From the NCBI GenBank assembly GCA_964406665.1, contig CAYOSQ010000001.1, forward strand, positions 135,412-199,411: 64,000 bases of DNA, in the 5' to 3' direction. Positions 3,099 through 44,600 of the stretch are shown here, one piece after another. The notes under the pieces were generated by a model. It made no database searches and was not told the origin of the DNA. It worked only from the letters and a program-made list of their open reading frames with translations. This DNA comes from an uncultured Planctomycetia bacterium. GTDB taxonomy: Bacteria; Omnitrophota; Gorgyraeia; VGKH01; JBHPFN01. Within the stretch, counting starts at the first letter, position 1. The number at the start of each line of letters is the position of its first letter. The position numbers and the translations under genes were made by a program.

Positions 3099-4202
3099 AT
3101 GGATATCAATAAGAACCCAAAGAAATATCACAGGATAAAAAATTTACTTTCGTTCCTGGATATCATCTTACAGGGTTCAATTTTATTGATAATTACGTTA
3201 TCCGGATTCTCTCTTTTCTTGAAAAATCAGGTGTCTGGAGTGTTTGAGAACTTTTATTTAGTTGTTGCCGGATATATCTTTTTGCTTGCGACAATTTTTT
3301 ATTTTATTACATTGCCAATAAGCTTTTTTGAAAACTATTATTTAGAACATCAATATAATCTTTCAAATCAAAAAATAACAAGCTGGTTTAAAGATAGTCT
3401 AAAAGAAACTATCATTGGATTATTGATTTTGCTAATCTGTGGAGAGTTTGTCTATTTTATCTTACGTAATTTTTCGGAGATTTGGTGGATTTTTGCCGGA
3501 TTTTTCTGGATATTTATAAGTGTAGTGTTGGCAAAAATTACCCCAACGTTGTTGATACCGTTATTCTATAAGTATATTCCTTTGGAAAAAGAAGAGCTGA
3601 AGGATAAAATTTTAAAATTGTTCAATACGCGTAAAGTTAAGATTAAAGATGTATATGTAATTAAATTTTCGGAGAAAACTAAAAAAGCTAATGCCATGGT
3701 TTGCGGTTTTAGTAAAAACCGTAGGGTAATTTTAACCGACACGCTTATTAATAGTTTTTCCGACGAGGAGATTGAGCAAGTCGTTGCCCATGAACTAGGC
3801 CATTATTGTGGTAGAGACATAACGAAGTTACTTTTTTTAAATTCAGTATGTTGTTTCCTGGCATTTTTTGTTGCTGATAAGGTTATAAGCACAACAGCTT
3901 TAAGATTCGGTTTTAGCGGTTTAGATGATATTGCCTTTTTTCCGATTTTGCTGTTGAGTCTCGTTGGAGTTGCTTTTTTGCTTTTACCTTTTCGTAACTG
4001 CTTTTCCAGATTTTTAGAGAAACGAGCGGATTTGTTTAGTTTGCAACTTACCAAAAACTCCCCAGCATTTATATCAGCCATGAATAAATTAGGTAGTTTG
4101 AACCTTGCAGATTTTAAGCCTTCTATTTTAGTAGAAATTTTTCTCTACAATCATCCTCCGATTGGAAAGAGGATTAAATATGCAAAAGAATTTAAAATAT
4201 GA
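3099..4202 (+). CDS. M48-family (Ste24/HtpX-like) integral-membrane zinc metalloprotease
   Basis: Multi-TM N-terminus, HELGH zinc motif (VVAHELGHY), downstream glutamate (EKRAD) and the C-terminal NHPPIGKRI motif typical of M48. Confidence 0.7.
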   Translation: MDINKNPKKYHRIKNLLSFLDIILQGSILLIITLSGFSLFLKNQVSGVFENFYLVVAGYIFLLATIFYFITLPISFFENYYLEHQYNLSNQKITSWFKDSLKETIIGLLILLICGEFVYFILRNFSEIWWIFAGFFWIFISVVLAKITPTLLIPLFYKYIPLEKEELKDKILKLFNTRKVKIKDVYVIKFSEKTKKANAMVCGFSKNRRVILTDTLINSFSDEEIEQVVAHELGHYCGRDITKLLFLNSVCCFLAFFVADKVISTTALRFGFSGLDDIAFFPILLLSLVGVAFLLLPFRNCFSRFLEKRADLFSLQLTKNSPAFISAMNKLGSLNLADFKPSILVEIFLYNHPPIGKRIKYAKEFKI

Positions 4203-6151
4203 AAAAGAGAAAAAAACATATTAATTCGGATCGGCGCAAATATCTAAGACTTAAGAGTGTTTTTCCTGTTGAGTTTAGGATTATGTCAGATAAGGATGAA
4301 CCATGGCAACAGGGGTTTACTTCTGATATAAGCAAAGGAGGTATTTGTCTAAAAGTTAACAACGTAGATGATAAATGGTTTTCTCAGCTTCAAGAAAAAG
4401 GTGTGGATATATCTTTACAGATAAATATTCCTATGTCTGCCGCAGCTACGCGTGCGGTTGCAAAAATTGTCTGGGTTAAGAAGGTCAAAGTAGGTGCTCT
4501 AAATCAATGTTTAATGGGCTTAGAATTTTCAAAGATAGATTCAGGAAATATTAACGGTATTGTACGCTATGGTCGCTGGATGGTGTATTCTGGTAAGGTT
4601 GCCGTAATAGCAATCTTGTTTTTGGCAACTTTAGCAGGTAGCATATTTCTAAATAATCAAAAGATGAGAAAAGAAAATGAAACATTAGTCGAAAAGTTAG
4701 TTGATAGCGCTAAAGAGGAATCAAAAATAAACAAACAGTTAGAAATTTTAACTGAAAGCAATAACGAAGCAGCAGTTCAGATTGAATCTTATTTAAGTAA
4801 AGTATCTAATTTGGAGATTAGAATTAATGAAGTAAAAACGCAAAAAGATAAAGACATGCTTAAGCAATTAGATAGTTTGAAAAAAGAGCTAGCTATCGCT
4901 GAAGAAAAAAAAGAAACCTTAGAGTTAAAATTAGCAGGTTCTAAACAAAGAAAAGAGTTAATTGATAAGGTTTTATTTTCTATAAAGGAGGAAAAGAAAG
5001 ATTTGCGGAAGGCTATGATTGATAAAATGTATAATTGGCTTGTTGTTCATCAAAACCCTCGTACTGGATTAATAATCAGCTATGAGGGGGATAGGCGTCT
5101 TCGGGACTGGGCATTCATTTATGATCAAGCCTTGGCCTCTCAGGCGTATATTCTATTCGGTGATTATGATCATGCTGAGAAGGCGTTCAATTTTTTCTTA
5201 AGACAATCGCATAAACAAGGACAGTTTTCTGGTTTTGCCAATGCCTACTATGCTTCTACAAGTAACGTAGCAGAACATGCTGTACATTGTGGTCCAAATA
5301 TTTGGCTGGGGATATCTTTGCTTCATTATCAGAGAGCAACCTTAGATGCCACGTATCTTCCTTTGGCTAAGAAAATTGCTGACTGGCTTATCAGGATACA
5401 AGAGCAAGATCCTTCTGGAGGTTTACGCGGAGGTCCTTCAGTTAACTGGTTTGCAACTGAGCATAACCTGGATGGCTATGCATTCTTTAACATGTTATTT
5501 GAGATAACAAATGAGGCCAAATACAAAATAGCTAGAGATAAAATCCTAAGCTGGTTGATTACCCATGCTTATGACCGCAAAGAAATTCCGATTAACCGTG
5601 GTAAAGGAGATTCTACCGTAGCAACTGATACATATGCCTGGTCAATTGCAGCTATAGGACCTAAGAAGCTCAAGAGAATAAAGATGGACCCAGATGAAAT
5701 TATGGCGTTTGCAGAAGATAATTGTGGTGTTTTTGTAGAATATGAAAGACCTAACGGAGAAAAGGTTGATGTTGAGGGTTTTGATTTTGCCAAATATCGT
5801 AATATGCCCCGGGGTGGAGTCATCTCTTCCGAGTGGACCGCACAGATGGTATTATCTTTTAAGATAATGCAAGAATATCATTTGAACCAGAATAATTTTG
5901 ATAAAAGTGTTTATTATTCTAAAAAGTATACCCATTTCTTAAATGAACTTGAAAAGCTACTTATTTCATCGTCTTCTCCGACGGGTCAAGGGGAAGGATG
6001 TCTTCCTTACGCAACCGAGGATAATGTAGATACCGGTCATGGGTGGAGAACGCCTCAGGGTCGTACCACTGGTTCGGTCGCCGGAACAACGTATACAATA
6101 TTTGCTCAGAAAGGTTTTAATCCGTTAAAGTTTTCTAAAGATGAAAAGTAG
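4199..6151 (+). CDS. PilZ-domain c-di-GMP receptor fused to TM helix, long coiled coil and a C-terminal alpha/alpha-toroid (glycoside-hydrolase-like) domain
   Basis: N-terminus carries both PilZ signatures, RRKYLR (RxxxR) and DISKGG (DxSxGG). A hydrophobic helix (VAVIAILFLATLAGSIFL) follows, then about 150 aa of heptad-rich coiled coil and a roughly 370 aa Trp/Tyr-rich domain. Start overlaps the upstream gene's stop (ATGA). Confidence 0.75.
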   Translation: MKKRKKHINSDRRKYLRLKSVFPVEFRIMSDKDEPWQQGFTSDISKGGICLKVNNVDDKWFSQLQEKGVDISLQINIPMSAAATRAVAKIVWVKKVKVGALNQCLMGLEFSKIDSGNINGIVRYGRWMVYSGKVAVIAILFLATLAGSIFLNNQKMRKENETLVEKLVDSAKEESKINKQLEILTESNNEAAVQIESYLSKVSNLEIRINEVKTQKDKDMLKQLDSLKKELAIAEEKKETLELKLAGSKQRKELIDKVLFSIKEEKKDLRKAMIDKMYNWLVVHQNPRTGLIISYEGDRRLRDWAFIYDQALASQAYILFGDYDHAEKAFNFFLRQSHKQGQFSGFANAYYASTSNVAEHAVHCGPNIWLGISLLHYQRATLDATYLPLAKKIADWLIRIQEQDPSGGLRGGPSVNWFATEHNLDGYAFFNMLFEITNEAKYKIARDKILSWLITHAYDRKEIPINRGKGDSTVATDTYAWSIAAIGPKKLKRIKMDPDEIMAFAEDNCGVFVEYERPNGEKVDVEGFDFAKYRNMPRGGVISSEWTAQMVLSFKIMQEYHLNQNNFDKSVYYSKKYTHFLNELEKLLISSSSPTGQGEGCLPYATEDNVDTGHGWRTPQGRTTGSVAGTTYTIFAQKGFNPLKFSKDEK

Positions 6152-13185: not shown

Positions 13186-14775
13186 CTAGTTTCTTAAAGT
13201 AACAGAGCTTGTAATAGAAAATTCAAAAGGACCTGACATCATAGAATCTTTTGATGCTTCAATGATTATATTGACAGAGTCCGGATTGCTATCTTTAGGA
13301 TTTCCGCTTTCATCAAAACCTTGGAAATCAACCCGTATTATATTATCTGCGACAACCGAGAATGTATAGTTGTCTATGCTTCCCATATCTTCGGCAAAAA
13401 CTAAATTCGAGAAGAATTTTTTTATAGCACAAAATGGAGGACAGCCTCCTGGGTCTCGACCCTGTGCTGGCAGATCTTTATTATGCACCAGATATCCATT
13501 AGCAAAGTAGTTGTGATATGGGTTTACTTCAATGTTGTAAACTATTATCTTTTCATCAACAGCTTCTATGCTGGTAATTGTTTCTTCTTTTCCTTCCTGG
13601 GTAAGAAGAATATCACCTTGTTTTAGCTTACCTGCTCTAACCCATGCACCATTAGCGAAGAAAGGATGTTCTGTTGTTACTTTGATGCCATCATTGATTA
13701 TCAGATACCCTTGGACCTCATGCATGAATACTTCTTTTACTGTGTCTCCTAGCTTAGTTCGAGAATTTTCACTATAAGAGGTTACTTTATCTCCTGTAAC
13801 TATATTTTCAATAAACTTGTTAGTGCCATCAGCCATAAGAATAGAAGTGCCGGGTAAGAGACAGCCTTTATTATGAGCTAATATGTTATCAGCATAATAT
13901 GTATGATAAGGGTTAACCTCAAGGTTGTATACCAACACAGGTTCTTCGATCCTTTCTATGCTGGTGATTGTTTCTTTAGAGCCGTTTACCTTGGTTAACT
14001 CATCACCTATATTAAGCAAGCCGATATCTACCCATCTACCTTTATGAAATACTGGGTGGTTAGGTGTTGCCTTGATGCGACCATTGATTAAAAGATAGTT
14101 ATCTTCTTCATGAATAAATGTTTCCACTACCTTATCAGACTTATTTTTACCAGATTCCTGATCATAGGCTAATACAGTGTCTCCTACTTTAATTGCTTCA
14201 ATATCTTTAGTTGAACCATCAGCTAAAAGAATAGGGGTACCTGCGAGAAAACAAGGATCGCATTCACCGCAGTCTAATTCACAAGTATTACAGTCTTCTC
14301 CAATCTCTGGTTCGCAGCCTTTGATGCCACAATGGTTAGTTGCTATTAAGCGCATAAGTCTTCCAGCGTTCGCGGAAGAAAAATTACTATGGGGTACTAA
14401 ATATACAACTTCTTCATTAAGAATACCATCAGCGCCCCATTTAATTTCTCCATAGGGATCTTCTTTATAATATGTGCCCGTGATAGGATCGTCAGTAATC
14501 TGCGGTGTCTGTAATTTTATAAGATGTCCGATACAGGTATTAACGTGTTCTCCGGTACACTCTTCAATAAAAACATGACCGGAATCTGATTGTTCTAGCT
14601 CTTTGACCATGCGTTCCATTGAGTAGCGGGCCTTCTGTTGTAGGTCAACCATTGAAGAACTTCTAATCCAGGTATTTCTTCCTATTATAATAGTACCGAT
14701 AACAATACCAAGTATAAATATTGCTATAACAACAGTTGCCATAGTTTCAGAAAGGGTAAATGCTTTTCTGTTCAT
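13186..14775 (-). CDS. Prepilin-type N-terminal domain protein with Cys-rich repeats and two tandem Hint (bacterial intein-like, BIL) domains, copy 2
   Basis: N-terminus MNRKAFTLSETMATVVIAIFILGIV is a type IV pilin-like leader plus hydrophobic helix, with Ala at -1 and a conserved Glu+5. A Cys-rich EGF-like segment (CGIKGCEPEIGEDCNTCELDCGECDPC) follows. Two Hint modules each have an N-terminal Cys (CFLAGTPIL, CLLPGTSIL), a TxxH block (TPNHPVF, TEHPFF) and a terminal HN (LAHN, LVHN), then Lys rather than a nucleophile. Confidence 0.7.
   Translation of the reverse strand: MNRKAFTLSETMATVVIAIFILGIVIGTIIIGRNTWIRSSSMVDLQQKARYSMERMVKELEQSDSGHVFIEECTGEHVNTCIGHLIKLQTPQITDDPITGTYYKEDPYGEIKWGADGILNEEVVYLVPHSNFSSANAGRLMRLIATNHCGIKGCEPEIGEDCNTCELDCGECDPCFLAGTPILLADGSTKDIEAIKVGDTVLAYDQESGKNKSDKVVETFIHEEDNYLLINGRIKATPNHPVFHKGRWVDIGLLNIGDELTKVNGSKETITSIERIEEPVLVYNLEVNPYHTYYADNILAHNKGCLLPGTSILMADGTNKFIENIVTGDKVTSYSENSRTKLGDTVKEVFMHEVQGYLIINDGIKVTTEHPFFANGAWVRAGKLKQGDILLTQEGKEETITSIEAVDEKIIVYNIEVNPYHNYFANGYLVHNKDLPAQGRDPGGCPPFCAIKKFFSNLVFAEDMGSIDNYTFSVVADNIIRVDFQGFDESGNPKDSNPDSVNIIIEASKDSMMSGPFEFSITSSVTLRN
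13468..13868. repeat. About 400 bp direct repeat, roughly 95% identical to 17436..17836 (Hint-domain cassette shared by the two pilin-BIL genes)
   Basis: Direct sequence comparison shows long identical runs, e.g. gcagatctttattatgcaccagatatccattagcaaagtag. Antisense ORFs at 13568..13777 and 17536..17730 translate almost identically. Confidence 0.8.
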
Positions 14776-14814
14776 TCCTTGTCCCCCCTTGTTAGTTTAT
14801 ATGATATCACAGTA

Positions 14815-17115
14815 TTAATAATATTTAACATAATAATAATTGAATTCAGAGAGAGGTATTTCCATGTAGATTTGTTCGGTGAAACCAACATAATCTTCTG
14901 GAGGATACTCGCCTGTTTCATTGTATGATTTATCATATTTGAATTCGTTATTTGCAGCATAAGGACCAATGGCACCCATTGAACTTGGCCAGCCAGGGTT
15001 TGTGCGTTCTGGTCTGGCGACAGTGTTATCATATTGGCCTGGATTTCCAAAATCTTCTTCACTGATTCTTATCTTGGAACCAAGGACAGTTCTTTTACGC
15101 TGCGTCCAATTGCTAGGAGTGTTATTTAAATCTCCCACATCTTGATAAAAGCTCCAGTTTTCTAAAACCTTGGGTTCATAAGCACGGTGACCGATAGCAG
15201 AAATATTATAGGTATAGTCTTTATCTACATTATTGGCAACTGTTCCGTCATATATCGGCAGAGTTAACGGAGGAGGTTTTTCCAGCTCTTGGCATACCTC
15301 TTCTTTTGGATCGCAAGGCGGAGGATAGGCCTCTGGGTTATCTTTTAAATTAGCCATCCAGTTGTATCTATCACCAGGGTCTGCTGTTAAATCCCAGTTA
15401 GGTTCATAGGGATATTCAATATGAAATCTGGTTATTGGTAGAGCACTAGGATAGTTAAACACATCAGATAAAGTATATAAATCCATTGCACAGATTGCTG
15501 CAGAAGGTTGTTTATCAGTTGCGAGATCACCAATGTTATAATCTCCTTTTAAATGCAAGTTTTTCTCAGTTATCCAGGTAACCCCACCTTCTGGTAAAAC
15601 TTCGGCATTATCAACAACTATATTAGCTTCGGAATAGATTAATCCGTTTCCAGGAGAATTTCCGGATGCAAGCAGTTCGGAAAAATTAAATTCTGTTACG
15701 ATGTTTTCTTGCATGCTGTGAGTGTTTATAAAAGTTTTAATTTCTGCCACAAGGTGTCCGCCTATCCATACTTCTCCTGAGGCATCAGATGGATATGAAA
15801 CGCGCGCAATCTGTACGCTGATTTCAGTTCCGTCTTCGTTTGACCCGATATATATACCTGCATCTTGAGCTGCATCTGCATAGTTTGAAGCGGCTACTGA
15901 CAAGGGTTCAATGTATTCTGCTCCAGAAGAGTAATCTTTTATAACTCCGGCTAGATTTGGTTCTGAAGCTGTATAATCAGATAGAGCTTGGGCTTGTGAA
16001 GCAAAAGAAGTGTTTAGCCATTTAACTGTTATTTCTGATTCTGGGAATCCCCAGGCTTCAGTAATGCTCCAGTATTTGTTTATGGTGTATGGTGCCTCTA
16101 ACCTGTTGGGAAGTCTGGTTTCGTTAATCCAGGCAATCCTGTCATCGTCAGCATAGTTTTCTGGGGCTTCATCAGGAAGGGGAGGATCTGGGTCAATATC
16201 AGGATCCCAGATTGCCTGAGCGGCATTGCGAATATTATACTTATCTCCATACACATGTCCATAAGATCTATTTTCGTATGAATACTCTGAAAACATTCCT
16301 CCTGAATATGTTTCTAAAGATTCTCCGGAATCTGGCTCGTAATTTGCTGAAGTCCAAGGTGCATGATTATATTTATAGTAGCTTCTCCAGGTTTCATGTG
16401 GGCAGTCTGTACATCCGGGAGTTTCATCCATGAAGTCATCGATGAATTCATAGGGAAGCCATGACTTGGCATAATATTGAATATAATCTTTTGCAGAAAA
16501 TTCACTAACATTAAAAATTTCAACGGAGTTCTGAAATATGAAGCTTCCATTAGTATGCATCCTTCCACCGTCAGCAAGCCATGTTCTACTACTTAAATAA
16601 TATGTTGAAGGAGAAAACAAAAAATAATCATAAAGAGATTGTGAGATAGTTTTAGACATAAATATTCTTTCAGTGCCTTGATTTTCACTTAGTCCTTTGG
16701 AATATATAAAATAGTCATCACTTGAAGGGCTTTTAAAAACTTTTACAGCAAAGTCTAGCCCTAACCCAGATCCTTTAGAAATATAGCATCCGTAGGTAGG
16801 ACTTTCTGGATCTTCATCTATCGCGGTTAATCCAGATAGCGTTACCGTTGGAACAGTGCCTGTGGGAACAAGCAGGCCATCTGCCTTTACCGTATGAGTA
16901 ACCCAATTGAGACTATGTGAAATTTCATATCTTGCCAAATTCAATCCGGCATCTGCAGCACACTTAGATTCTATATTACTTTGTTGCCTGCGTATGTTTA
17001 AGTTGTCGTTTGCTATTCTAAAAAAGAATGCTGTGGCCAATACAGAAAGTGCTGTAACAACAATGTAAGTGCCAATGAGTACAAAACCCTTTTTGTTAAG
17101 TATTTTTACGTTCAT
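14815..17115 (-). CDS. Large secreted PilX-N-like putative pilus tip or adhesin protein, copy 1
   Basis: N-terminal MNVKILNKKGFVLIGTYIVVTALSVLATAFFF (PilX_N-like). 766 aa and paralogous to 10753..13149. Follows the pilin-BIL gene by 27 nt on the same strand. Confidence 0.55.
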   Translation of the reverse strand: MNVKILNKKGFVLIGTYIVVTALSVLATAFFFRIANDNLNIRRQQSNIESKCAADAGLNLARYEISHSLNWVTHTVKADGLLVPTGTVPTVTLSGLTAIDEDPESPTYGCYISKGSGLGLDFAVKVFKSPSSDDYFIYSKGLSENQGTERIFMSKTISQSLYDYFLFSPSTYYLSSRTWLADGGRMHTNGSFIFQNSVEIFNVSEFSAKDYIQYYAKSWLPYEFIDDFMDETPGCTDCPHETWRSYYKYNHAPWTSANYEPDSGESLETYSGGMFSEYSYENRSYGHVYGDKYNIRNAAQAIWDPDIDPDPPLPDEAPENYADDDRIAWINETRLPNRLEAPYTINKYWSITEAWGFPESEITVKWLNTSFASQAQALSDYTASEPNLAGVIKDYSSGAEYIEPLSVAASNYADAAQDAGIYIGSNEDGTEISVQIARVSYPSDASGEVWIGGHLVAEIKTFINTHSMQENIVTEFNFSELLASGNSPGNGLIYSEANIVVDNAEVLPEGGVTWITEKNLHLKGDYNIGDLATDKQPSAAICAMDLYTLSDVFNYPSALPITRFHIEYPYEPNWDLTADPGDRYNWMANLKDNPEAYPPPCDPKEEVCQELEKPPPLTLPIYDGTVANNVDKDYTYNISAIGHRAYEPKVLENWSFYQDVGDLNNTPSNWTQRKRTVLGSKIRISEEDFGNPGQYDNTVARPERTNPGWPSSMGAIGPYAANNEFKYDKSYNETGEYPPEDYVGFTEQIYMEIPLSEFNYYYVKYY

Positions 17116-17141
17116 TTTACCCCTCGCTTTTAGATGGCAAT

Positions 17142-18419
17142 TTATTCATTTACATTTACTGCTGAATGTAATGTTACCTCTAGCTCTCTACCGAGTAGAA
17201 ATATATTCTTTTTAGCCAAAATAGTTATTTTTATTACTTCCGGATTTGCTGCATCCGGTATTGCTGTAAATGTTATCCTATCTATATTTTGAGTGAGAAC
17301 ACGTTCTCCATAAAGCATGTCCGCATATGCGCATGGTGTTAAAAATATTGATCTAAAGAATTTATTAAGCGATGTCCAATCACCACAGTCTGGTGGGCAA
17401 TCGCCACCCCGGAGTTCCATCTGATAGTGCATCGCGGGCAGATCTTTATTATGCACCAGATATCCATTAGCAAAGTAGTTATGATATGGGTTTACTTCAA
17501 TGTTGTAAACTATTATCTTCTCATCAACAGCTTCTATGCTGGTAATTGTTTCTTCTTTTTCTTCCTGGGTAAGAAGAATATCACCTTGTTTTAGCTTACC
17601 TGCTTTAACCCATGCACCATTAGCGAAGAAAGGATGTTCTGCTGTTGTTTTGATATTATCATTGATTATCAGATATCCTTGGACCTCATGCATGAATACT
17701 TCCTTTACTATATCTTCCAGCTTAACTTGAGAGTCTTCATCATAAGAGGTTACTTTATCTCCTGTAACTATATCTTCAATAAATTTGTTAGTGCCATCAG
17801 CCATAAGAATAGAGGTGCCTGGCAAGAGACAGCCGGGATGGCAGGGACCGCAATCTGTTGAACAGGTACTGCAGGTTTCTCCTAGCTCTGGCTCACATAT
17901 TTCATTGCCGCAATGAGCAGGATTACATTCTCCGCAGTCTGGAATGCATTCATCGCAAATTTCGTAAGGGGTTTCGCATACCTCGTTTCCACAAACTGGA
18001 TCGATTGGTTGTTTTCTTACTAAACTGCCTTGATTTTCTCCTTGAGCCGGAACATAGTAGTAACCAAATTCATCAGGCCATCCATCAATACCCCATTTGA
18101 TTTGACCGGATTCATCATAATATGTTCCTGCTACTGGATCGTTGGTTATAATCGGGGCCTGAAATTCAATTACATCTCCTACACATTCAGTTTCTATGCA
18201 TCCAGTAACTGTGATGTGATCTGCATCTAGAGATTTTAATTCGTTTACAATTCTATCCATTGCAAACCGTGTAGATTGTGTCAGATCAGCATATGCAGAA
18301 TTAGTTAAGAATGTATCGCGACCAACTACAAGGGTTGAGGTAATCATTAAACCAATACCAACACAAATCGCCGTTACAACTAATCCTTCAAAAAGTGTGA
18401 AAGCTTTTCTATTCATCAC
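17142..18419 (-). CDS. Prepilin-type N-terminal domain protein with Cys-rich repeats and one Hint (BIL) domain, copy 1
   Basis: N-terminus MMNRKAFTLFEGLVVTAICVGIGLM (prepilin-like). Long Cys-rich stretch (CGNEVCETPYEICDECIPDCGECNPAHCGNEICEPELGETCSTCSTDCGPCHPGC). Hint domain CLLPGTSILMADG...TAEHPFF...LVHNKD. AGGAGG RBS upstream. First gene downstream of the riboswitch. Confidence 0.7.
   Translation of the reverse strand: MMNRKAFTLFEGLVVTAICVGIGLMITSTLVVGRDTFLTNSAYADLTQSTRFAMDRIVNELKSLDADHITVTGCIETECVGDVIEFQAPIITNDPVAGTYYDESGQIKWGIDGWPDEFGYYYVPAQGENQGSLVRKQPIDPVCGNEVCETPYEICDECIPDCGECNPAHCGNEICEPELGETCSTCSTDCGPCHPGCLLPGTSILMADGTNKFIEDIVTGDKVTSYDEDSQVKLEDIVKEVFMHEVQGYLIINDNIKTTAEHPFFANGAWVKAGKLKQGDILLTQEEKEETITSIEAVDEKIIVYNIEVNPYHNYFANGYLVHNKDLPAMHYQMELRGGDCPPDCGDWTSLNKFFRSIFLTPCAYADMLYGERVLTQNIDRITFTAIPDAANPEVIKITILAKKNIFLLGRELEVTLHSAVNVNE
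17436..17836. repeat. About 400 bp direct repeat, roughly 95% identical to 13468..13868
   Basis: See the paired repeat entry. Covers the Hint domain of copy 1. Confidence 0.8.
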
Positions 18420-18629: not shown

Positions 18630-18703
18630 GGGGTTAAAAAAAATCGAAATATACAACTTTTTTTTAAAAAAAAGACATTTTTATCTTTTTTTAGAATTTT
18701 TTT

Positions 18704-30099: not shown

Positions 30100-33000
30100 A
30101 TGTCTGAAAAAGACAAAAAAATTAGTCCTTCAAAAAACCGAACTGTGAATCGGTCTGCCCAGAACGATTCAAGCTTACCTAAGAAACTCTCCAATTGTAA
30201 AAAGATAGAACAGGCATACCTAGAAACAGAATTACATTGCTCCAATGCACTTAATTCTTTATTTGATTCAATTCTTATTGTTGATAGAGAGTTAAAAATC
30301 ACTTTAATTAATGACGCCTTTAAAGAATGGAATAAAAAACTTGGTTTGTCAGATAACATGGTGGGTAAATACCTTTTTGAAGTATTCCCGTTTTTGCCGA
30401 ATAAGGTTAAACAGGAATATGATCAAGTCATTCAAAAAAGGGAATCTCTAATAACCGAGGAACACGTAAATGTTTTAGGAAGAAACTTGATAACAGAGGC
30501 TAGAAAGATTCCAGTTTTAAGAAACGGTGAGACAGTTCAAATAATTACCATGATTAGGGATATTACTGAGCGTAAAAAAATAGAAGAGAGAATAACTAAG
30601 ATAAACAAATGCTTTCTTGATTTTAGCTCGAACGCTGATGAGAATATAAATAAATTAGTTGCTCTTTGCGGAAAAATAATGGGAGGAAAATGTTCTGTTT
30701 ATAATAGGCTAGAAGGAGGATTGCTTTGCTCAGTGGGGAAATGGAACACCCCTAAGGATTATAATTCTATTAGTAATCCTGAGGGACATATTTGTTATGA
30801 TGTTATCAAGCGCGGCAGTGGAAAGTTCTGGATAGTACGCAATTTACCTCAGTCACGTTATGGGCAATCAGACCCAAATGTAAAAAGTTTCGGACTGCAG
30901 ACTTATATAGGTATTTCTGTTTCTTTCAACGGAAAGTGCGTAAGCGCACTATGTGTTGTATATCAAGAGGATGTTGTTATAGATAATGACGATAAGAAAT
31001 TTATGCAGCTGATTGCTTCTGCCATTGCTTCAGAAGAGAAGCGTAAAGAATCAGAAAAGGCTTTGTTGACCAGCAAGGAAAAATACAAGACCTTAACTCA
31101 TAATGTTAACATAGGCATATACAGGAATACAGCTGGTTCTCATGGTAAGTTTATTGAGGCGAATCCTGCGGTCATAAAAATGTTTGGATATAAAAACAGG
31201 CGTGATTTTTTGATTCGAAATGTCTGCGATTTGTACCAAAATAAGGCAGATCGAGAAAAGTTTAGCAGGAAGTTATTGGAAAAGGGATTTGTCAAGAATG
31301 AAGAATTACGCCTTAAGAAAAAAGACGGAAAGGCTTTTCTTGCATCTGTATCTGCCGTTGCTATAAAAGATGATAATGGCGAGATCAAATATTATGATGG
31401 AATAGTTGAAGATATAACCGAGAGAAAACAATCTGAAGTTAAATTGCGTAAATCAGAAGAAAAATACAGATTTCTTTTTGAAAAAAGTGCGATTCTTGCC
31501 ATAGTTGTCGGTGAGGATAAAAAGATCAAAGATGTAAATAAGTGGACTTGGGAAACTTTAGGATATGCAAGAAATGAAATAATTGGAAAAACAGCTTTAG
31601 ATTTCGTTGTTCCTGAAGAAAGAGAAAGAGCGCGAGAGGAATTAAAAAAATCATTTAACGATGAAATATCCTCCGGTGTTGGAATTAACGTACTTGCCAA
31701 AGATGGCAGTACGCATACGATTCTTTTTTCTCCCGGACAGGTTTTACTGCAGGAAAAAGGTAAGATTTCCAGCATACTTCTAACAGGTTTAGACATTACT
31801 GATCGTAAAATATCTGAAAAAAATCAGCTTGATATGACATCACATTTGCGCGCCGTGGTAGCTGCAACCGATGAACTTATTAATTGTTCGAATCTTGAAG
31901 TTGTTTACCGCTGGGCAGTAGAATTTGCCAGAAATAAGCTAGGACTAGAGAGATGCGCGATATTTTTGGAAGAAGGAGGTTATGTTCAAGGTATTTATGG
32001 AACTGATAAAAATGGTAATACAACAGACGAACATACGAATCGTTTTTTAAAGAATGAATCCTGGAAACAGCGTTTTAGGATGCTTCATCCTCAAGACCCA
32101 AGTTGGGTGGTAGTTAAGGAGCCGCAGCTAGAATGGGATGGAGATAAAACTGTTCAAATAGGAGAAGGTTGGATTGTAATAACGCCTATTCAATCTACCC
32201 AACGTCCTATAGGCGTGTTGGTTAATGATACAGCCATAAGCGGTTGTGTATTAGATCCTATGAAGCAAGATACCTTGGCTGTGTTTTGTTCTCTCTTGGG
32301 AAACATTATTGAGCGTAAACGTGCAGAAAATAAATTAGAGATAGTTAACAAAAAACTACTTCAGTCAAACAGAAGGTTGAAACAGCTTGCTTTAAGGGAT
32401 TCTCATACTGGATTATATAATCATAGATATTTGGAAGAAGCAATCAATTCTGAATTCGACCGCGCAAAACGCTATGCCTATTCTCTTTCTGTAATTATGC
32501 TCGACATTGATTATTTTAAATCCATAAATGATGTTTATGGCCATCAGTTTGGTGACCTTATATTAAAACAGTTTTCCCGTCAACTTAAGCGTCTGGTACG
32601 TAAATATGATACTGTTATTCGTTTTGGTGGAGAAGAGTTTATTATTCTTTCCCCGGGTATTGATAGATTTACAGCCATGATTTTAGCCCGTCGACTCTTA
32701 AATGTTGTTAATTTATGCAATTTCGGCAATCAGGAAAATAGTATAAAGTTAAAATTAAGTTTGTCTATTTCTTCCTATCCTGAAGATAATGCTTCTAAAG
32801 GAATGGATTTGATTAATCTGGTTGATCAGATTTTAAACAGGGCAAAAGAAGATGGAGGAGATCGGGTTTATTCTTCCCAGGAGATGGGTAAAGAAAAAGA
32901 TCCGGTATTAAACAAGGTGGAAAGAAGTACCGATATTAATTTCCTTCAGGAAAAAATAGATAAGCTTACCAGAAGGGCGAACCAGAGTTTGATAGAAGCA

Positions 33001-33531
33001 ATCTTTGCTTTTGCAAAGACGATAAAATTAAAAGACGATTATACTGGAGAACATGTTGAGGAGACTGTGTTTTTTGCAACTGAAATAGCCAGAAGGTTAA
33101 AGTTGACTAAATTTCAAATTGAGCAGATTCGTCAGGCTTCGAAGTTGCATGATCTAGGTAAAATCGGCGTAAGCGAGAGAATTTTACGTAAAAAATCTAA
33201 ATTAACCAAGAAAGAATTTGATGAGATAAAAAAACATACTTTAATTGGAGCTGATATATTAAGGCCGATTCATTTTCTGCATGATATTATTCCGCTAATA
33301 CTTTATCATCACGAACGCTGGGATGGTACAGGGTATCCTTATGGGTTAAAGAAAGAAGAAATACCTGTTGGGGCCCGTATAGTAGCCGTTGCCGATACTT
33401 TTCAAGCACTCACCTCTGATCGCCCATATCGCAAGGCATTTTCTAAGGCTAAGGCAAAAACAATTGTTAGAGAAAATGCTGGTACGCAGTTTGATCCTAA
33501 AATAGTAAATGCATTTTTAGCTTTAACATAG
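30100..33531 (+). CDS. Multidomain c-di-GMP turnover protein: PAS/PAC sensor domains, GGDEF diguanylate cyclase and HD-GYP phosphodiesterase
   Basis: Several PAS-like blocks. GGDEF domain with DIDYFKSINDVYGHQFGD and an intact RFGGEEFIIL (GGEEF) active site. C-terminal HD-GYP with HDLGKIGV and HHERWDGTGYPYGL. Confidence 0.85.
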   Translation: MSEKDKKISPSKNRTVNRSAQNDSSLPKKLSNCKKIEQAYLETELHCSNALNSLFDSILIVDRELKITLINDAFKEWNKKLGLSDNMVGKYLFEVFPFLPNKVKQEYDQVIQKRESLITEEHVNVLGRNLITEARKIPVLRNGETVQIITMIRDITERKKIEERITKINKCFLDFSSNADENINKLVALCGKIMGGKCSVYNRLEGGLLCSVGKWNTPKDYNSISNPEGHICYDVIKRGSGKFWIVRNLPQSRYGQSDPNVKSFGLQTYIGISVSFNGKCVSALCVVYQEDVVIDNDDKKFMQLIASAIASEEKRKESEKALLTSKEKYKTLTHNVNIGIYRNTAGSHGKFIEANPAVIKMFGYKNRRDFLIRNVCDLYQNKADREKFSRKLLEKGFVKNEELRLKKKDGKAFLASVSAVAIKDDNGEIKYYDGIVEDITERKQSEVKLRKSEEKYRFLFEKSAILAIVVGEDKKIKDVNKWTWETLGYARNEIIGKTALDFVVPEERERAREELKKSFNDEISSGVGINVLAKDGSTHTILFSPGQVLLQEKGKISSILLTGLDITDRKISEKNQLDMTSHLRAVVAATDELINCSNLEVVYRWAVEFARNKLGLERCAIFLEEGGYVQGIYGTDKNGNTTDEHTNRFLKNESWKQRFRMLHPQDPSWVVVKEPQLEWDGDKTVQIGEGWIVITPIQSTQRPIGVLVNDTAISGCVLDPMKQDTLAVFCSLLGNIIERKRAENKLEIVNKKLLQSNRRLKQLALRDSHTGLYNHRYLEEAINSEFDRAKRYAYSLSVIMLDIDYFKSINDVYGHQFGDLILKQFSRQLKRLVRKYDTVIRFGGEEFIILSPGIDRFTAMILARRLLNVVNLCNFGNQENSIKLKLSLSISSYPEDNASKGMDLINLVDQILNRAKEDGGDRVYSSQEMGKEKDPVLNKVERSTDINFLQEKIDKLTRRANQSLIEAIFAFAKTIKLKDDYTGEHVEETVFFATEIARRLKLTKFQIEQIRQASKLHDLGKIGVSERILRKKSKLTKKEFDEIKKHTLIGADILRPIHFLHDIIPLILYHHERWDGTGYPYGLKKEEIPVGARIVAVADTFQALTSDRPYRKAFSKAKAKTIVRENAGTQFDPKIVNAFLALT

Positions 33532-38646: not shown

Positions 38647-41600
38647 GTGGTTTCTATAAAAAAGTGGGGAAAATTGCGGAACAGATGTATGAGTGTGTTT
38701 ATTGCACTCATTTTTTTATTCAATTCACTTACCCCTGCATATGCCTGGAGGCCAGGTAATCGTGGTGAACAAAGTGCGCTTGAATCTTTCGCGGCCGGAA
38801 GTCTTTCCGGAGGAATATCAGCCCTTACCATAGCTATGAATCCTATTGCTGGTGCACTAAGCAGCATAGCTTCAAATGTAGCCAGTACGGTTGTATATTA
38901 CAATGATTATGACAGCCAGAGCAAGCCTTGGTTTGATCTAAAGCTTTTTATTTTCTGGGGTCCTAAGATAAAAACATTTACCAAGGCGGAAGCAATAGGT
39001 ATGATTGCCGGTATTGTAGTTGGTGCTGCAGCAGGGTTTGTTGATGGAGCCATAACTGGAAATTCTGAAGAAATAGCAGCAGATGCTGCAGCTGATACTG
39101 GTTCTACGGCAGTTGTAGGCACAACCATTGGTTCTGTGGCAACAGCTGCCAGTCAAAGCTTTTTTAATAGCATGCTCAACGTTTTAACCAATATCGGTAA
39201 CTGGGTATGGAAGAATATGATTGTTGCTTCTTATAAGAACGCCAAAGAGATTTTATTAAGCCCAATAAAGACTATCATCAAAATTGTAAAGAACTTCAGT
39301 AAGATCATGCGAAGGTCCTGGGATTTATCTTTGTCTCTAGTGAAATCATTGGCTAAAACTCCAGTTGTTATCGCTAAAAATATTAGTAAAATCGCTAGGT
39401 CTATCTATAAAACTGCTTACAAGACAGCAGAGGTATCTTTGCGTTTAGCAAAGGCGTTTGTCTGGAATATACCTACAGGAATGCTCAAAAATGCATATTC
39501 TATGCTTAAGGCAACTTTTAACACTCTTACATCGGGATCATTCTGGAGCAGGACGTTTAATACTGTAGGCAGTAAGGCAGGAGCTTTGTTTAGAACACTC
39601 AGAGGCGCAGCTTCTTCTGTAGCAAAAAACATCGAACAGCTCTTTACTCAACCACTCAGTATTACCTTAAAGAATATAGGAAGGTGGCTTAAAGAGTTAC
39701 CTGTTAATTCAATTAATAGGATAAAAACGCTGGCTAAAAAAATTGGACAGAGAATAAAAAATGTTTCTCAAGCCACCAGATTTACAAATCCTTATTATCA
39801 ATATGGTGCCTTAGGGATAAAAGGGCTTCCGGCGTTTTTTGTCCAGCTTGCAGCAGACATAACTTCTGCAATGTACAGAGCTGCTTTTCAAGATGCAACT
39901 AAGGAAATTCTTGAGAAAAAACTTGGTCTGGATGAAAGCATTGCAGAGATCGCCGCAACAGAACTGATTAATAAATTTGCCGCTAAAACAATCAATCATA
40001 ATATTCTTAAAGCATTCGGCTCTGCTTTTGGCTGGGGCATAACCGCATACGGTGGTTTCATAACCGGCGAGATGCAAGAGCGTCTAAAATCAATCGAAGA
40101 GCATGGAAACAACGGAATAGAAGTGCAGGGTATAGTCGTCTCAGAAGATTCTTCTAGTCCAGATACATCAACCCAAGCCTATAACATAAAACTCAAACAG
40201 CTTGTTGGCGCAGGTGCTTTATTAAAAGATGGCACCTGGGTAAGACTTAGTGATGTTGAAGATGCCTCAGAGATAGTAGGCATAGCTGTAGCAACCGATC
40301 GAGGTGTTATCTTAATTGAACCTAATGTAAATATCATCAGCGCAGTTCAGGGATACAAGCAGGCTTTTATACAGGTAGCCAGATTATATATGAGTACCAT
40401 ATCTATGCCTGCTTCACTGAATCAACCAAGTCAAGATGGTGCTTTATCTATGTTGGTTAAGATAGGTGTACTAAAGCTCTTAAGTTACGGTAGTGGCCAT
40501 AGGGGATCATTGGGTAAGATCTGGAAGAAAAAGATAGCAGAGTTAATAGGTAAGCTTGCATCAGAATCTGCAGACAGTCCTGTGCCATCAGAGGAGCAAC
40601 TTGCAGCTTCAGATGAAAGTGAAAAAACCGAAGAGTCTCGGGAAGAAGCTGTAGAGGTTGCTAGCGCTGAATCCGGGGCATCAGTCCAAGATCAAGAAAG
40701 CTCCTCTGAAGAATCATCATCAGAAGAATCTGCGTCAACTGGCAGGAGAGAGCTTGTGTTAGAAAGCATTTCTGATTCATTTGATTCAAGTGGTAGATAT
40801 AATCCTCAAGCACATCTTTTGCCTTTTGGTGACCATCCTTATGGCGGCGATGGAGGAGGTTCCGATGAGTCTGACGAATCCGGAGAAGAAGATGATTCTG
40901 TGGTTTCAAGCTTTAGCTTCGAAGGAGAAACATTTACATTTGATGATCTAAAAAAAGTAGGAAAAATTTATAGAAGTGGTAGAAAAACAGGGATTTTTAT
41001 TTCTAATGCTATTAGAAATGGTGGAGGCTTACTTTCAGGCGGTGAAGATGAAGAAAGCATTGAGAGCGACGGCGTTATTTATACCAAGGTTGAAAATAGA
41101 GAAGTTATGATTATAGATTTAGAAACAGGAGAGATTAAGCACTTGACTGGTTCTGTAGGAGTCGTTCTTGTTACCCTTAGCGATGGATCTTCCTATTTTG
41201 CATTAGTGGATTTCGTGCAGTTGAAAAAAGATATTCAGGAGAGAAATAATTTTACTGACAGGGGAACTGAAATTTTAGCTTTTCTTCCACAGCCACTAGA
41301 AGAAATAAAGCCCCTACCCCCAAAGGAAGAAGAACAAGAAGAGCAGCCACAACTTCCCGAGCCAGTACATAAGAGAGAAGTTACTGTGGGAGGATCAGCT
41401 GTAACGGCTGCTTCAGAAGAGAGTTTTGATGAATCTGATGAATGGGGAGAGGTTACGCTGAGGCCTGAACCACAAACTCCTGAAGAAGAGCAGGAAGCAG
41501 AAGATAGAAAGGGCGGAGAGCGATTTAGTGTTGATTTAGCAGATGTCCCCGGAGCAGCGCTAGATGTTGGAGAGGCAGTTGTAAAAGTGCCTTTTGGGGT

Positions 41601-44600
41601 AGTAAAAGGAGTTGGCGGTCTTGCTGGATCTTTGCTTGGTCTTAAGAAAAAAACTCCAGCAGAATTAGCACGTGAGGCTGCAGAAGATGAAATTAAAATA
41701 GGGGAGCAGATTTTAGAGGAATTTAATGATTCAGATTCTGAAATTACTATTTCAGTAGATAATGAAGGAACTTCAGGAAGGTGTGGTGGTGCTTGTAGGC
41801 TTGAGGTTGATGATCCTTATGAAAGACCTTATCCGGAATATGAACATACTGGAAGATGTTTAAAAAGAGCCCTAGGAAGAGACCCTCAAAGAGCTAACCA
41901 GCTTAAAGCAATGATTAAACAGGTTGTTGCTTTAGGCAATGAGCTTATCGGTGATCCTAAGTTTCGTATTAAACATGTTAAGTTTACTGATAAATTTCCT
42001 TCCCATGCCAATTATTATACTAATACAATTTACCTTAATGTTGATGATTTTCTTTTGGGTTCACACAAAATAAAATACGATGAAGAAGGTTGTGCATCTG
42101 GGTTATGTTCTGAAGAAAGTGCTGGGGAACTTACACATCATGAAGCTTCCCATTTTATTGTTGATAGCAATGTTGATTTACAGCTTGATGAAGTTTATGG
42201 AAAACTTCTTGTTATGATGCAGGGTATTCCGGGATTTGCCCTTATGCCAGGTTCTCGACACACAGCACATCATTATTCAAAGACTAATCAAGAAGAATTT
42301 GCTGCAACGGGATTGGAACCGATTGTTAATTCTGGCAAAGGCAGTGCTTTTGCTGATTCAGTCCTAGCTTGGAAGCGTCGCGGTGATCCTAAGGCAGATG
42401 TTGCAGGTAATTTATATGTAAAATTTTCCCAGGATATTGCCGGACTTGAAGCTGATGAACGAGTGACTGCTCTTTATCCTCCGGGCAGTTTTGAATATAA
42501 AACTCCTGATAATTTAGATCATTATGTGCGCGAGGTGCTTTTAGATAAAGGTTTAGCTGAGCTTGTTAGAGAAAATATTTATTATGGATTTCATGCGGCG
42601 ATGCTTCATGCCCCGGATGCATTAATGGCTTCTTTGGAAAAAGTTATAAACGATCCGTCTTTAACAGCAAGTGATGTTCATACAATATTGGTTGGTTTAA
42701 ATGCTATAGATAAAAACTATAATAGTGAAAACTCTGTTGGTTTAAATTTATCGCGCATGTATCCTCATATGTTGCGCTTGATTGCTGATATGCAAAATGC
42801 AGTTAATCAGGGATATCCTAAGGAATCAGTTGGCAAAGTTGCTCCTTTAAGAAATGCTTCAGGAGAAGAGTTAGGCAGGATCGAATTTTCTGATATGGAT
42901 ATGATTAAGGGAAGCCATTTCTTCCAGTGGATGATACAGAATATTCCTAATATGGAAAACGGAATAAATCTGGATATCGCATTAAGCTTGTTGAACTCTC
43001 TCGATCCCGAGGGCGGCAATTCACGCGAGCAGTTGCGCAGCGCTTTAGCAGGGATCGAAATACCTGCTTTTGCTACAAGATTCAATTTGTCTCAATTGAG
43101 CTCTAGCGATCTTCAGCAGATGGACCCTGTTGAATTTATTGCAGGTTTAATCCGCGCCCAGCAATCTATGGATGCATTATCAGCTAATGAAGATTTTGCA
43201 GCAGAATTAGGTGGTAAAAGAATAGTTCTTAAAACTGGAGAGGCAAGAGATCTATTGCATTCTTCTAACGATGCATCTGAGCCGATTTCTATCGGAATTG
43301 ATCTGGCCAAAGATCAAAACCAGCTAGTAGCTGAGGCAATAGCAGGTGCAGGTTTAATCCTTGCGCCGAATCTACTTTTTTCCGATGAATTTAAACAGGT
43401 TCTCTCAGAGAATTCATTTACAGATATTTCTATATTGTTTAATCAAGATGGTAGTTTGGTTCAGCGCGGTGATTCTCAGGAGCTATTTCGAGTTTTAATA
43501 CCTGCATATGTATTGCATGGTGAAGATTTTGTTAATTACATTGAAAGTTATAAGGGTAAAAACCCAGATGCTTATAATACATTGTTGAGAGCCTTCGTTT
43601 TAATTCGTGAGCAAGTTTTTAAAGGGCACACATTTTTGGAAAATGGGGTAGACCCTTTTGCAGGAACCAAGTTAGGAGATATACCTGCAGTAACAGAGTT
43701 TAATTTGCAGAATTGGTTAAATGGTATTTTAAGACAAGAAGGCTCGGGATCATCTTCTTCAGATTCAACAAATATTAAAACTGGCTCACTTAATTTAGAG
43801 AGTAGTCATCAGAGTCGAGAACTTGTATTAGCAAGTGCTATGGATTCATTCAGCATGCAGGATAGATACAATCCTCAGGCACATCTGTTGCCCATGGAGC
43901 CACATCCAGTATCAGCCTCGGGAGAAGAATCTCAAGATCCTGTTGGGTCTATTACTGCAGGAGAATTTGCTCAATTTGGTCATATCTTGCGAAATAAGAT
44001 TTTACCAGACCTACAGTTAAGAGAAGAGTTCTTGCAAGAAGTAGTTAGTGCTCTTGAAACCGGAAATATGCGAATGCTTTCACTAGTGTTTAATACGACT
44101 GCTAACTTCTCTGATGTCTCAGAAATAGTTCATAGGCCAATGATTGAACATATTGCTTCGATGTCATCTTCTCAAGTAGAGAGGCTAGAATTTACTGATC
44201 AGATTATTCAAGGCTTACAGCAGAATAATAGGTTCAGCGCAAAACTAAAACAAGTTATCAGGGATCCGCGATTCGCTAAATCTGCAGATAAGCTTTTAGG
44301 TGTATTGTTTAAGTTTGATCCTGAAACATCCGGTATGATCGCCGCGGAGTTAGGAAATCATTATATCTGGAATTTACTGGATACTAAAGAGCGGCAACAG
44401 CAGCGCGATAGTGTTGATCGTTTTCTTAAAGATTATGGCTGGGAGATAGGCATGTGGGGATATGATCAAGATTTTTTATGGGAACCGAGTTTGACAACTG
44501 GTTCTCTTGACGGCCATAGTAGAAGATGGCTTAGAGTACCAATCAAAAGATCTTTTAATTTCAAAGAAGGAGGTTGGAGTGAAGAAAGTAGTCATGGCGT

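Follow-up and report, generated by a model that had tools for sequence, protein, structure and literature searches.

The 64,000-nucleotide (nt) window analyzed here (contig CAYOSQ010000001.1 of assembly GCA_964406665.1, positions 135,412 to 199,411) comes from an uncultured bacterium of the Omnitrophota. It carries a block of four co-directional minus-strand genes, in the order g2, a 766-amino-acid (aa) gene, g1 and a 798-aa gene, with intergenic gaps of 26, 39, and 36 nt (Table 1). The genes g1 and g2 encode pilin-like proteins interrupted by Hint domains and share a segment of closely similar DNA, which is the subject of this analysis. Both proteins follow one plan, with a presumed prepilin motif of the form KA/FTLxE, a hydrophobic helix, Cys-rich CGxxxCExxxxxCxxDCGxC repeats, one or two Hint modules and about 95 more residues. 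The g2 protein (424 aa counted from the ATG at 18416; the open reading frame (ORF) list starts it at the GTG at 18419) begins with the FTLxE hydrophobic helix. Two Cys-rich repeats come next, then its single Hint module, and a pilin part forms the C-terminus. In g1 a single repeat precedes two tandem modules, a and b, linked by Lys-Gly only. The repeat consensus upstream of the Hints is CGNExCEPxxGExCxxCxxDCGxC, present in two copies in g2 and in one in g1.

The modules are 128 aa long. Matches to Pfam PT-HINT lie above the cut-off in g1 (2.2e-41) and g2 (2.8e-19), as do those to Intein_splicing. All five modules considered here (a and b of g1, b'' of g2, and a' and b' of a third gene, g3, described below) start with Cys1, have a block-B TxxH (TPNH, TTEH, TAEH, TSNH, or TAEH), end in a terminal His-Asn (AHN or VHN), and are followed by Lys at position +1, with no Cys, Ser, or Thr there. 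Modules a and b of g1 are 51% identical in aa sequence. The best sequence match in the PDB is the bacterial intein-like (BIL) domain 2LWY of Clostridium thermocellum (E = 9e-13), and the top Foldseek matches are 6Y75 and 2LWY, with TM-scores of 0.80–0.84 on the target (for 6Y75, E = 4e-13 and TM 0.80). The AlphaFold2 (AF2) model of g2 used for this search was built on a 5-sequence alignment; it is confident for the Hint part only (residues 196–324, predicted local distance difference test (pLDDT) 80–92; mean 53) and gave no fold-based minor-pilin class.

Type A BIL domains have the His-Asn but no +1 nucleophile, and in them cleavage dominates over some splicing (PMC4031507; PMC7765530). The lack of Cys, Ser, or Thr at +1 sets BIL domains apart from canonical inteins (PMC4031507). 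Judged by sequence, the present modules match type A BIL/PT-HINT autoprocessing domains. A canonical mobile intein was ruled out by the Lys at +1 and by the lack of an endonuclease: there is no insert between blocks B and F, and Hom_end_hint matches reach no further than residue 31 of the splicing part. Unlike canonical intein hosts, the proteins carrying the modules are fast-evolving and pilin-like, and some of their paralogs lack the insert and the linkers. A polymorphic toxin was ruled out as well, since the C-terminal part is pilin, aligning in both g1 and g2 with the C-terminal part of Hint-less pilin paralogs, and neither a toxin nor an immunity gene is evident; what lies downstream of g1 and g2 is in each case a conserved large partner. 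The dN/dS (non-synonymous to synonymous divergence) ratio of the exchanged module is 0.1–0.35, indicating purifying selection, and this together with the intact catalytic residues argues that the modules are functional.

A repeat search and blastn both gave one ungapped direct repeat of 401 nt with 29 mismatches (92.8% identity), one copy in g1 and the other, 3968 nt away, in g2. An earlier note on this DNA had placed a near-identical segment of about 400 bp in the two pilin-Hint genes at 13468-13868 and 17436-17836; the segment is real and the place right, with the coordinates 2 nt off, and the identity is below the 95% or so given there. The note missed the tandem Hints of g1, of which g2 matches the second one (b) only. 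Antisense ORFs at 13568-13777 and 17536-17730, which it had as translating identically, are similar, not identical, and their similarity is a trivial consequence of the DNA identity. The patch is made up of module b/b'', one Gly codon ahead of Cys1 and, behind His-Asn, the codons for KDLPA; its edges are the module edges, with the 3' end five codons past His-Asn. Identity is uneven along it, with 87.7% (24 mismatches) in the gene-5' 195 nt and 97.6% (5 mismatches) in the gene-3' 206 nt, and the longest perfectly identical runs between the copies today are of 44 nt.

In a codon-aware sliding comparison of g1 and g2, third-codon-position identity was 0.8–1.0 in the patch vs. 0.25–0.45 in the flanks, and nucleotide identity 0.80–0.98 vs. 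0.3–0.55. Synonymous divergence (dS) by the Nei-Gojobori method was 0.16–0.18 in the patch, with a dN of 0.05, and about 2.8 in the N-terminal 70 codons, which means synonymous saturation. Because synonymous sites are near-unsaturated inside the module alone while the flanks are saturated, the patch is recent shared DNA. Protein-level conservation as its source is ruled out by the same synonymous-site analysis.

The third gene, g3, was found via a cluster look-up that began at a hybrid contig (L013, see below). It encodes a small unrelated 150-aa pilin, the linker GSCGT, modules a' and b' with Lys-Gly between them, and a short Pro-rich tail, and it is followed by another pilin-like gene (179 aa). 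Its contig, 88 kb long, breaks off 714 nt past the end of g3, which the repeats may have caused. The non-pilin part of the contig has a GC content of 0.361 and a tetranucleotide correlation with the window of 0.986 (0.985 within the window), and g3 co-occurs with window sequence in the same samples; since composition and co-occurrence agree, g3 very probably belongs to the same genome as the window. The g3 copy from one sample carries an in-frame TGA right at the border of the pilin and Hint parts (L019:610-615), where other samples read GGA (Gly). It splits the 150-aa pilin (P0008) from the Hint array and could be a pseudogenizing or an uncoupling variant.

The stretch over which g1 and g3 are homologous opens precisely with the Cys1 codon of module a and closes behind the His-Asn-Lys of module b. 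Nucleotide identity is 89% for a vs. a' (dS 0.47), 85% for b vs. b' (dS 0.46), and 84% for b'' vs. b' (dS 0.50). Among the three b modules, the site patterns g1=g2 : g1=g3 : g2=g3 stand at 14:12:10 in the first 195 nt and at 28:3:1 in the rest (Fisher p = 4.6e-5), and the dS between g1 and g2 is 0.27 in the first of these parts and 0.05 in the second. Transfer has thus been recent, non-reciprocal and confined to the modules, and it came in several layers and involved three genes. An older layer, at dS of about 0.3–0.5, is common to all three b copies and to a and a'; the latest event between g1 and g2 covers the 3' 206 nt of the module. We regard it as probable that the patch was left by repeated non-reciprocal homologous recombination (gene conversion) between dispersed Hint/BIL modules, whose family spans three minor-pilin-like genes in one Omnitrophota population (a-b in g1, b'' in g2, a'-b' in g3). 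The earlier note had suggested that the Hint cassette moved only recently between older paralogs, whether by gene conversion or by a swap of modules, and the dS contrast, the boundaries at module edges, the mosaic and the tree conflict described below bear this out.

A single recent duplication and insertion of one Hint module by illegitimate recombination, with no later conversion, would also give a patch whose edges are domain edges, the uneven identity then reflecting uneven constraint. The module number of 0–3 among relatives and the tandem arrays common in the subfamily fit such an origin, and at least one non-homologous insertion must have occurred, the hosts being non-homologous. The three-way mosaic is significant, however, and the synonymous contrast is beyond the reach of protein constraint. 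Moreover, g1 and g3 have the a-b tandem in common at a dS of about 0.47, which predates the g1/g2 similarity, so the latest g1/g2 event overwrote an existing module. A single duplication is therefore unlikely, and repeated conversion is favored because a synonymous-site mosaic is expected from conversion tracts and not from one duplication.

Under repeated conversion, the modules would first have spread as whole-domain cassettes into unrelated or very old paralogous pilin genes. Later conversion tracts would have been confined to the modules, because usable DNA homology exists inside the modules only, and the host pilin parts would have stayed saturated at synonymous sites. The likely process is RecA-type gene conversion, both between the two direct repeats, which lie 4 kb from each other, and with g3 at its distant locus.

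Mis-joining or collapse of related strains or loci during assembly might also have made the patch or the a-b tandem of g1. The source is a metagenome assembly, and two contigs, L005 and L007, stop at the repeat edge (13868 and 13880, respectively), as is expected since such repeats trouble short-read assemblers. Exact-protein look-up yielded the 128-kb source contig (Ga0115649_1000312) from JGI sample 3300009008 and contigs from at least eight other JGI and ENA samples, assembled by two pipelines. They match the window at 99.97–100% over one copy or both, the copies keeping their 29 fixed differences and their reading frame, and three of them span the g1 copy or both copies plus unique sequence on either side. 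The artefact against which the earlier note had cautioned is thus opposed by the same arrangement in at least nine independent assemblies (contigs, not reads). It is opposed as well by g3, which shows the a-Lys-Gly-b arrangement independently, at 85–89% identity, on its 88-kb contig. An artefact is accordingly the least credible of the explanations, and highly improbable. Short ENA contigs (P0157, P0160, and L013:1-3558) encode g3/g1 hybrids, with the g3 N-terminus and a', and a g1-type b; they finish with the g3 tail or else run on into the g1 C-terminus and the 798-aa gene. Their switch points fall in sequence that the two loci share without a difference for 60 nt or more, as assembler path switching would give, and the hybrids are explained equally well as real recombinants or as such path switches. 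The gene calls of L013 break the 798-aa large gene into two ORFs of 272 and 331 aa. Of just four substitutions against the window sequence, one (L013:2555, equal to window 12333) lies at the boundary between these ORFs; the large gene may be disrupted in this variant. In practical terms, repeats of 400–800 nt at 85–93% identity break or mis-join metagenome assemblies at these genes.

The Neisseria pilE/pilS pair suggests a further possibility, that of programmed variation in which cassette exchange diversifies the pilins. Exchangeable modules in three genes would suit it, as would the existence of the hybrid contigs, the variable module codons 31–42 (SYSENSRTKLGD / SYDEDSQVKLED / SYDEESKTKLKD), which have mixed site patterns and a dN/dS of 0.36, and the report of BIL domains in hypervariable regions of non-conserved proteins (PMC7765530). 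The exchanged unit, however, is a conserved catalytic domain and not the exposed part of the pilin, and the window has no silent partial cassettes, its Hint matches being three and all in full-length genes. Cassette shuffling among strain variants, which the earlier note proposed to check, was not seen: across the nine or more samples the population is essentially clonal, with no alternative module variants at g1 or g2, and the hybrid contigs are equally explained by assembly. The likeness to antigenic or phase-variable pilin systems drawn there is not supported either, since the domain is conserved under purifying selection, the genes are made more alike and all three are full-length. Programmed variation is therefore very improbable.

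An orthologous locus occurs in the Omnitrophota single amplified genome (SAG) AM-311-J20 (GCA_042571725.1), in the same PAC2-to-Era neighborhood as in the window. The g2 ortholog there is P0002, and the g1 ortholog lies at L011:8993-10186. A large-gene homolog comes after the pilin gene in every related locus, and the Hint copy number per pilin gene in related Omnitrophota is 0–3. Hint-less, empty-site paralogs are the 218-aa pilin at L011:12728-13384, which also lacks the Cys-rich linker, and pilins in L015 and L017. They align with g1 on both flanks of the insert, and the block made of Cys-rich linker, Hint(s), and CPPxC..KFF is therefore an insertion in a minor-pilin loop. In L012 and L018, one such Cys-rich repeat sits in the pilin loop without any Hint. 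A metagenome scan with the pilin-Hint alignment gave one locus only, a duplicate of L012.

In a neighbor-joining tree of the modules, g1-a groups with module 1 of the SAG g2 ortholog (bootstrap 100; 72% identity), g1-b with g2-b'' (bootstrap 100), and the two L012 modules with each other (bootstrap 99). The first of these groupings sets the module history in conflict with host-gene orthology.

Several points weigh against repeated conversion as set out above. The modules of the SAG paralogs are not homogenized (53% aa identity), so this locus is not always subject to conversion. The mixed patterns in the 5' half could in part be parallel changes in one variable loop. Homologous recombination cannot explain the first entry of modules into non-homologous pilin genes, where the only shared feature of the entry sites is a Cys-rich CGxC context before Cys1. 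The linkage of g3 to the window genome and the heterogeneity of the population are judged from composition and co-occurrence only, and the activity of the modules, with thioester formation at Cys1 and cleavage at the terminal Asn, is a family-based prediction.

Table 1. Features of the pilin-Hint locus, the third gene and related loci (window coordinates unless a contig is given)
Feature	Position	Strand	Details
g2, pilin-like gene	17142..18419	minus	FTLxE helix, Cys-rich repeats, Hint, pilin C-terminus
g2 Cys-rich linker	17832..17996	minus	two CGNExCExxxxxC..DCGxC repeats; directly upstream of Hint module
Hint module b'' of g2	17448..17831	minus	aa 196-323; Cys1 ... TAEH ... His-Asn, then Lys
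Repeat copy 2	17434..17834	minus	in g2; Gly codon before Cys1 to Ala codon of KDLPA
Latest exchange tract in g2, 206 nt	17434..17639	minus	dS 0.05; site patterns 28:3:1 for g1=g2
Large partner gene 1, 766 aa	14815..17115	minus	N-terminus hydrophobic, lacking Glu5; no family match
g1, pilin-like gene, 529 aa	13186..14775	minus	one Cys-rich repeat and two tandem Hint modules
g1 Cys-rich linker	14254..14334	minus	one repeat; directly upstream of module a
Hint module a of g1	13870..14253	minus	aa 175-302
Hint module b of g1	13480..13863	minus	aa 305-432
Repeat copy 1	13466..13866	minus	in g1; repeat search, blastn
Latest exchange tract in g1, 206 nt	13466..13671	minus	97.6% identical to g2 tract
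Large partner gene 2, 798 aa	10753..13149	minus	29% identical to 766-aa protein
g3 (P0156), 433 aa	L020:10001-11302		contig Ga0115649_1000937, same sample as window
SAG AM-311-J20	L011		3-Hint pilin (g2 ortholog), large, 1-Hint pilin (g1 ortholog), large, 218-aa pilin, large
Related locus	L012 / L018		one pair; pilin with two Hints appended behind complete pilin body
Related locus	L015		one Hint pilin and one Hint-less pilin
Related locus	L017		large gene and Hint-less homolog adjoin T2SSE and T2SSF genes

The presumed prepilin motif reads KA/FTLSE in g1 and KA/FTLFE in g2, with Ala in place of Gly at −1; the SAG orthologs of both share this Ala, and more distant homologs carry the usual KG/FTLxE. 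With Pfam N_methyl, g1 and g2 score 12 bits, below the cut-off of 21.2, which is passed by the L018 pilin-Hint protein (29.0 bits), the Hint-less homolog in L017 (31.1), and the L015 paralog (21.6). The L017 homolog passes TIGR02532 too (22.5 vs. 16.3). The scanned window ORFs, which are not all of those in the window, and the gene calls flanking the locus yielded no machinery gene for type IV pili or type II secretion. In L017, T2SSE and T2SSF genes adjoin the large gene and the Hint-less pilin.

The large partner proteins match no Pfam or NCBIfam family at E ≤ 1, and a PDB profile search gave only a marginal match (E 0.15), at the hydrophobic helix. They are 29% identical to each other, not the 35% or so given in the earlier note. 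The PilX-like label it gave them finds no PilX_N/GspK similarity in Pfam, NCBIfam, or the PDB, and retains only the position beside minor pilins and the N-terminal helix, which lacks Glu5.

An AT-rich imperfect palindrome (18639-18692; 30-nt arms, 73% complementary) lies in the 368-nt interval between g2 and the divergent PAC2-family gene, and may be a candidate regulatory site of the four-gene block. Two genes for cyclic di-GMP signaling lie near the pilin locus in the window, for a 1143-aa PAS/GAF-GGDEF-HD (HD-GYP-type) protein (30100-33531) and for a 650-aa PilZ-domain protein (4199-6151). A giant gene, a 2900-aa ORF on the plus strand, occupies window positions 38647-47349.

An exhaustive profile search gave 15,630 proteins with this Hint type, whereas a word-indexed protein search gave 7. 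Among the best 150 cluster representatives (clusters at 50% identity), at least 21 combine a pilin-type N-terminus with 1–3 Hints, and tandem arrays of 2–6 modules with linkers of 1–10 residues and an internal identity of 30–100% are common. The residue after His-Asn is Lys in 155 of 243 subfamily modules and Cys, Ser, or Thr in 12.

Type A BIL domains (Amitai et al., 2003; Dassa et al., 2004) are among the nearest known parallels. The present modules resemble them in the 128-aa size without an endonuclease insert, in Cys1, TxxH, and His-Asn, in having no Cys, Ser, or Thr at +1, and in residing, often in several copies, in non-conserved secreted or surface proteins. They differ in the pilin-like host, where g1 and g2 have the module inserted into a pilin-body loop and g3 has it appended to a small pilin, and in the strong preference of the subfamily for Lys at +1. 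With the PT-HINT domains (PF07591) of polymorphic toxins they share the best Pfam model and the use of the module as a recombination boundary between unrelated protein parts, and NCBI names one ortholog a "polymorphic toxin-type HINT domain-containing protein." Here, however, a pilin fold follows the Hint, with no toxin domain and no immunity gene evident, and it is the Hint itself that is exchanged and not a downstream toxin tip.

Concerted evolution of paralogs by gene conversion is well known from tuf genes and rRNA operons, and Neisseria pilE/pilS is a diversifying special case of it. The present locus has the same short tract of high identity in old paralogs, mosaic tracts, and direct repeats 4 kb apart, but here the tract does not extend beyond one inserted domain, full-length genes serve as donors and acceptors alike, and the outcome is homogenization, not antigenic diversification as in pilE/pilS. 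Modular type IV pilins, in which a functional domain is grafted onto a pilin module, are said to be exemplified by PilB and PilC of Streptococcus sanguinis. Such pilins have a class III signal, a hydrophobic helix, and an extra globular domain with its own function, a plan that the present proteins appear to share. In the present proteins, by contrast, the grafted part is an autoprocessing Hint in 1–3 tandem copies, which interrupts the pilin fold in g1 and g2.

The top Foldseek match is BIL2 of Tetrahymena BUBL (6Y75/6TMM), in which an isopeptide bond is formed from the upstream C-terminus to a lysine (PMC8616854). A Lys is conserved after the modules here too, although their flanks are pilin parts and not ubiquitin-like domains, and sequence identity is only about 30%. 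Because the structurally closest BIL makes a Lys isopeptide, the conserved Lys is a lead for covalent linkage. On such a view the modules, far from being passengers, might do the work of a novel type of pilus subunit. The Cys1 thioester, activating the C-terminus of the N-terminal pilin fragment, might be attacked by the +1 Lys, a purely hypothetical nucleophile, or by a lysine of another subunit or of a target cell, giving an isopeptide and thus ATP-independent covalent cross-linking or covalent surface attachment of a type IV pilus tip in Omnitrophota; gene conversion would then keep module copy number and sequence in step between paralogs. This reading is speculative and rather improbable. 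Apart from this reading, active modules would cut the pilin after export, or rejoin its halves without a +1 nucleophile.

In the searchable literature, BIL/PT-HINT domains inside or at the end of type IV pilin-like proteins appear undescribed, with incidental co-mentions only. The recombination itself is ordinary, whereas the presence of BIL modules in type IV pilin-like genes of Omnitrophota appears new; gene conversion between paralogs being routine, the interest lies in the nature of the exchanged module. Type IV minor-pilin-like proteins, with 0–3 tandem copies, appear to be a new class of host protein for BIL modules. The Hint-less paralogs show the empty site, and the locus illustrates, as a natural experiment, the spread of Hints as whole-domain cassettes. 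The bacteria of the phylum Omnitrophota are very small and may depend on hosts. Should the modules be active, the cutting, splicing or covalent linkage of these pilins after export would be a new step in the maturation of type IV filaments in this phylum.

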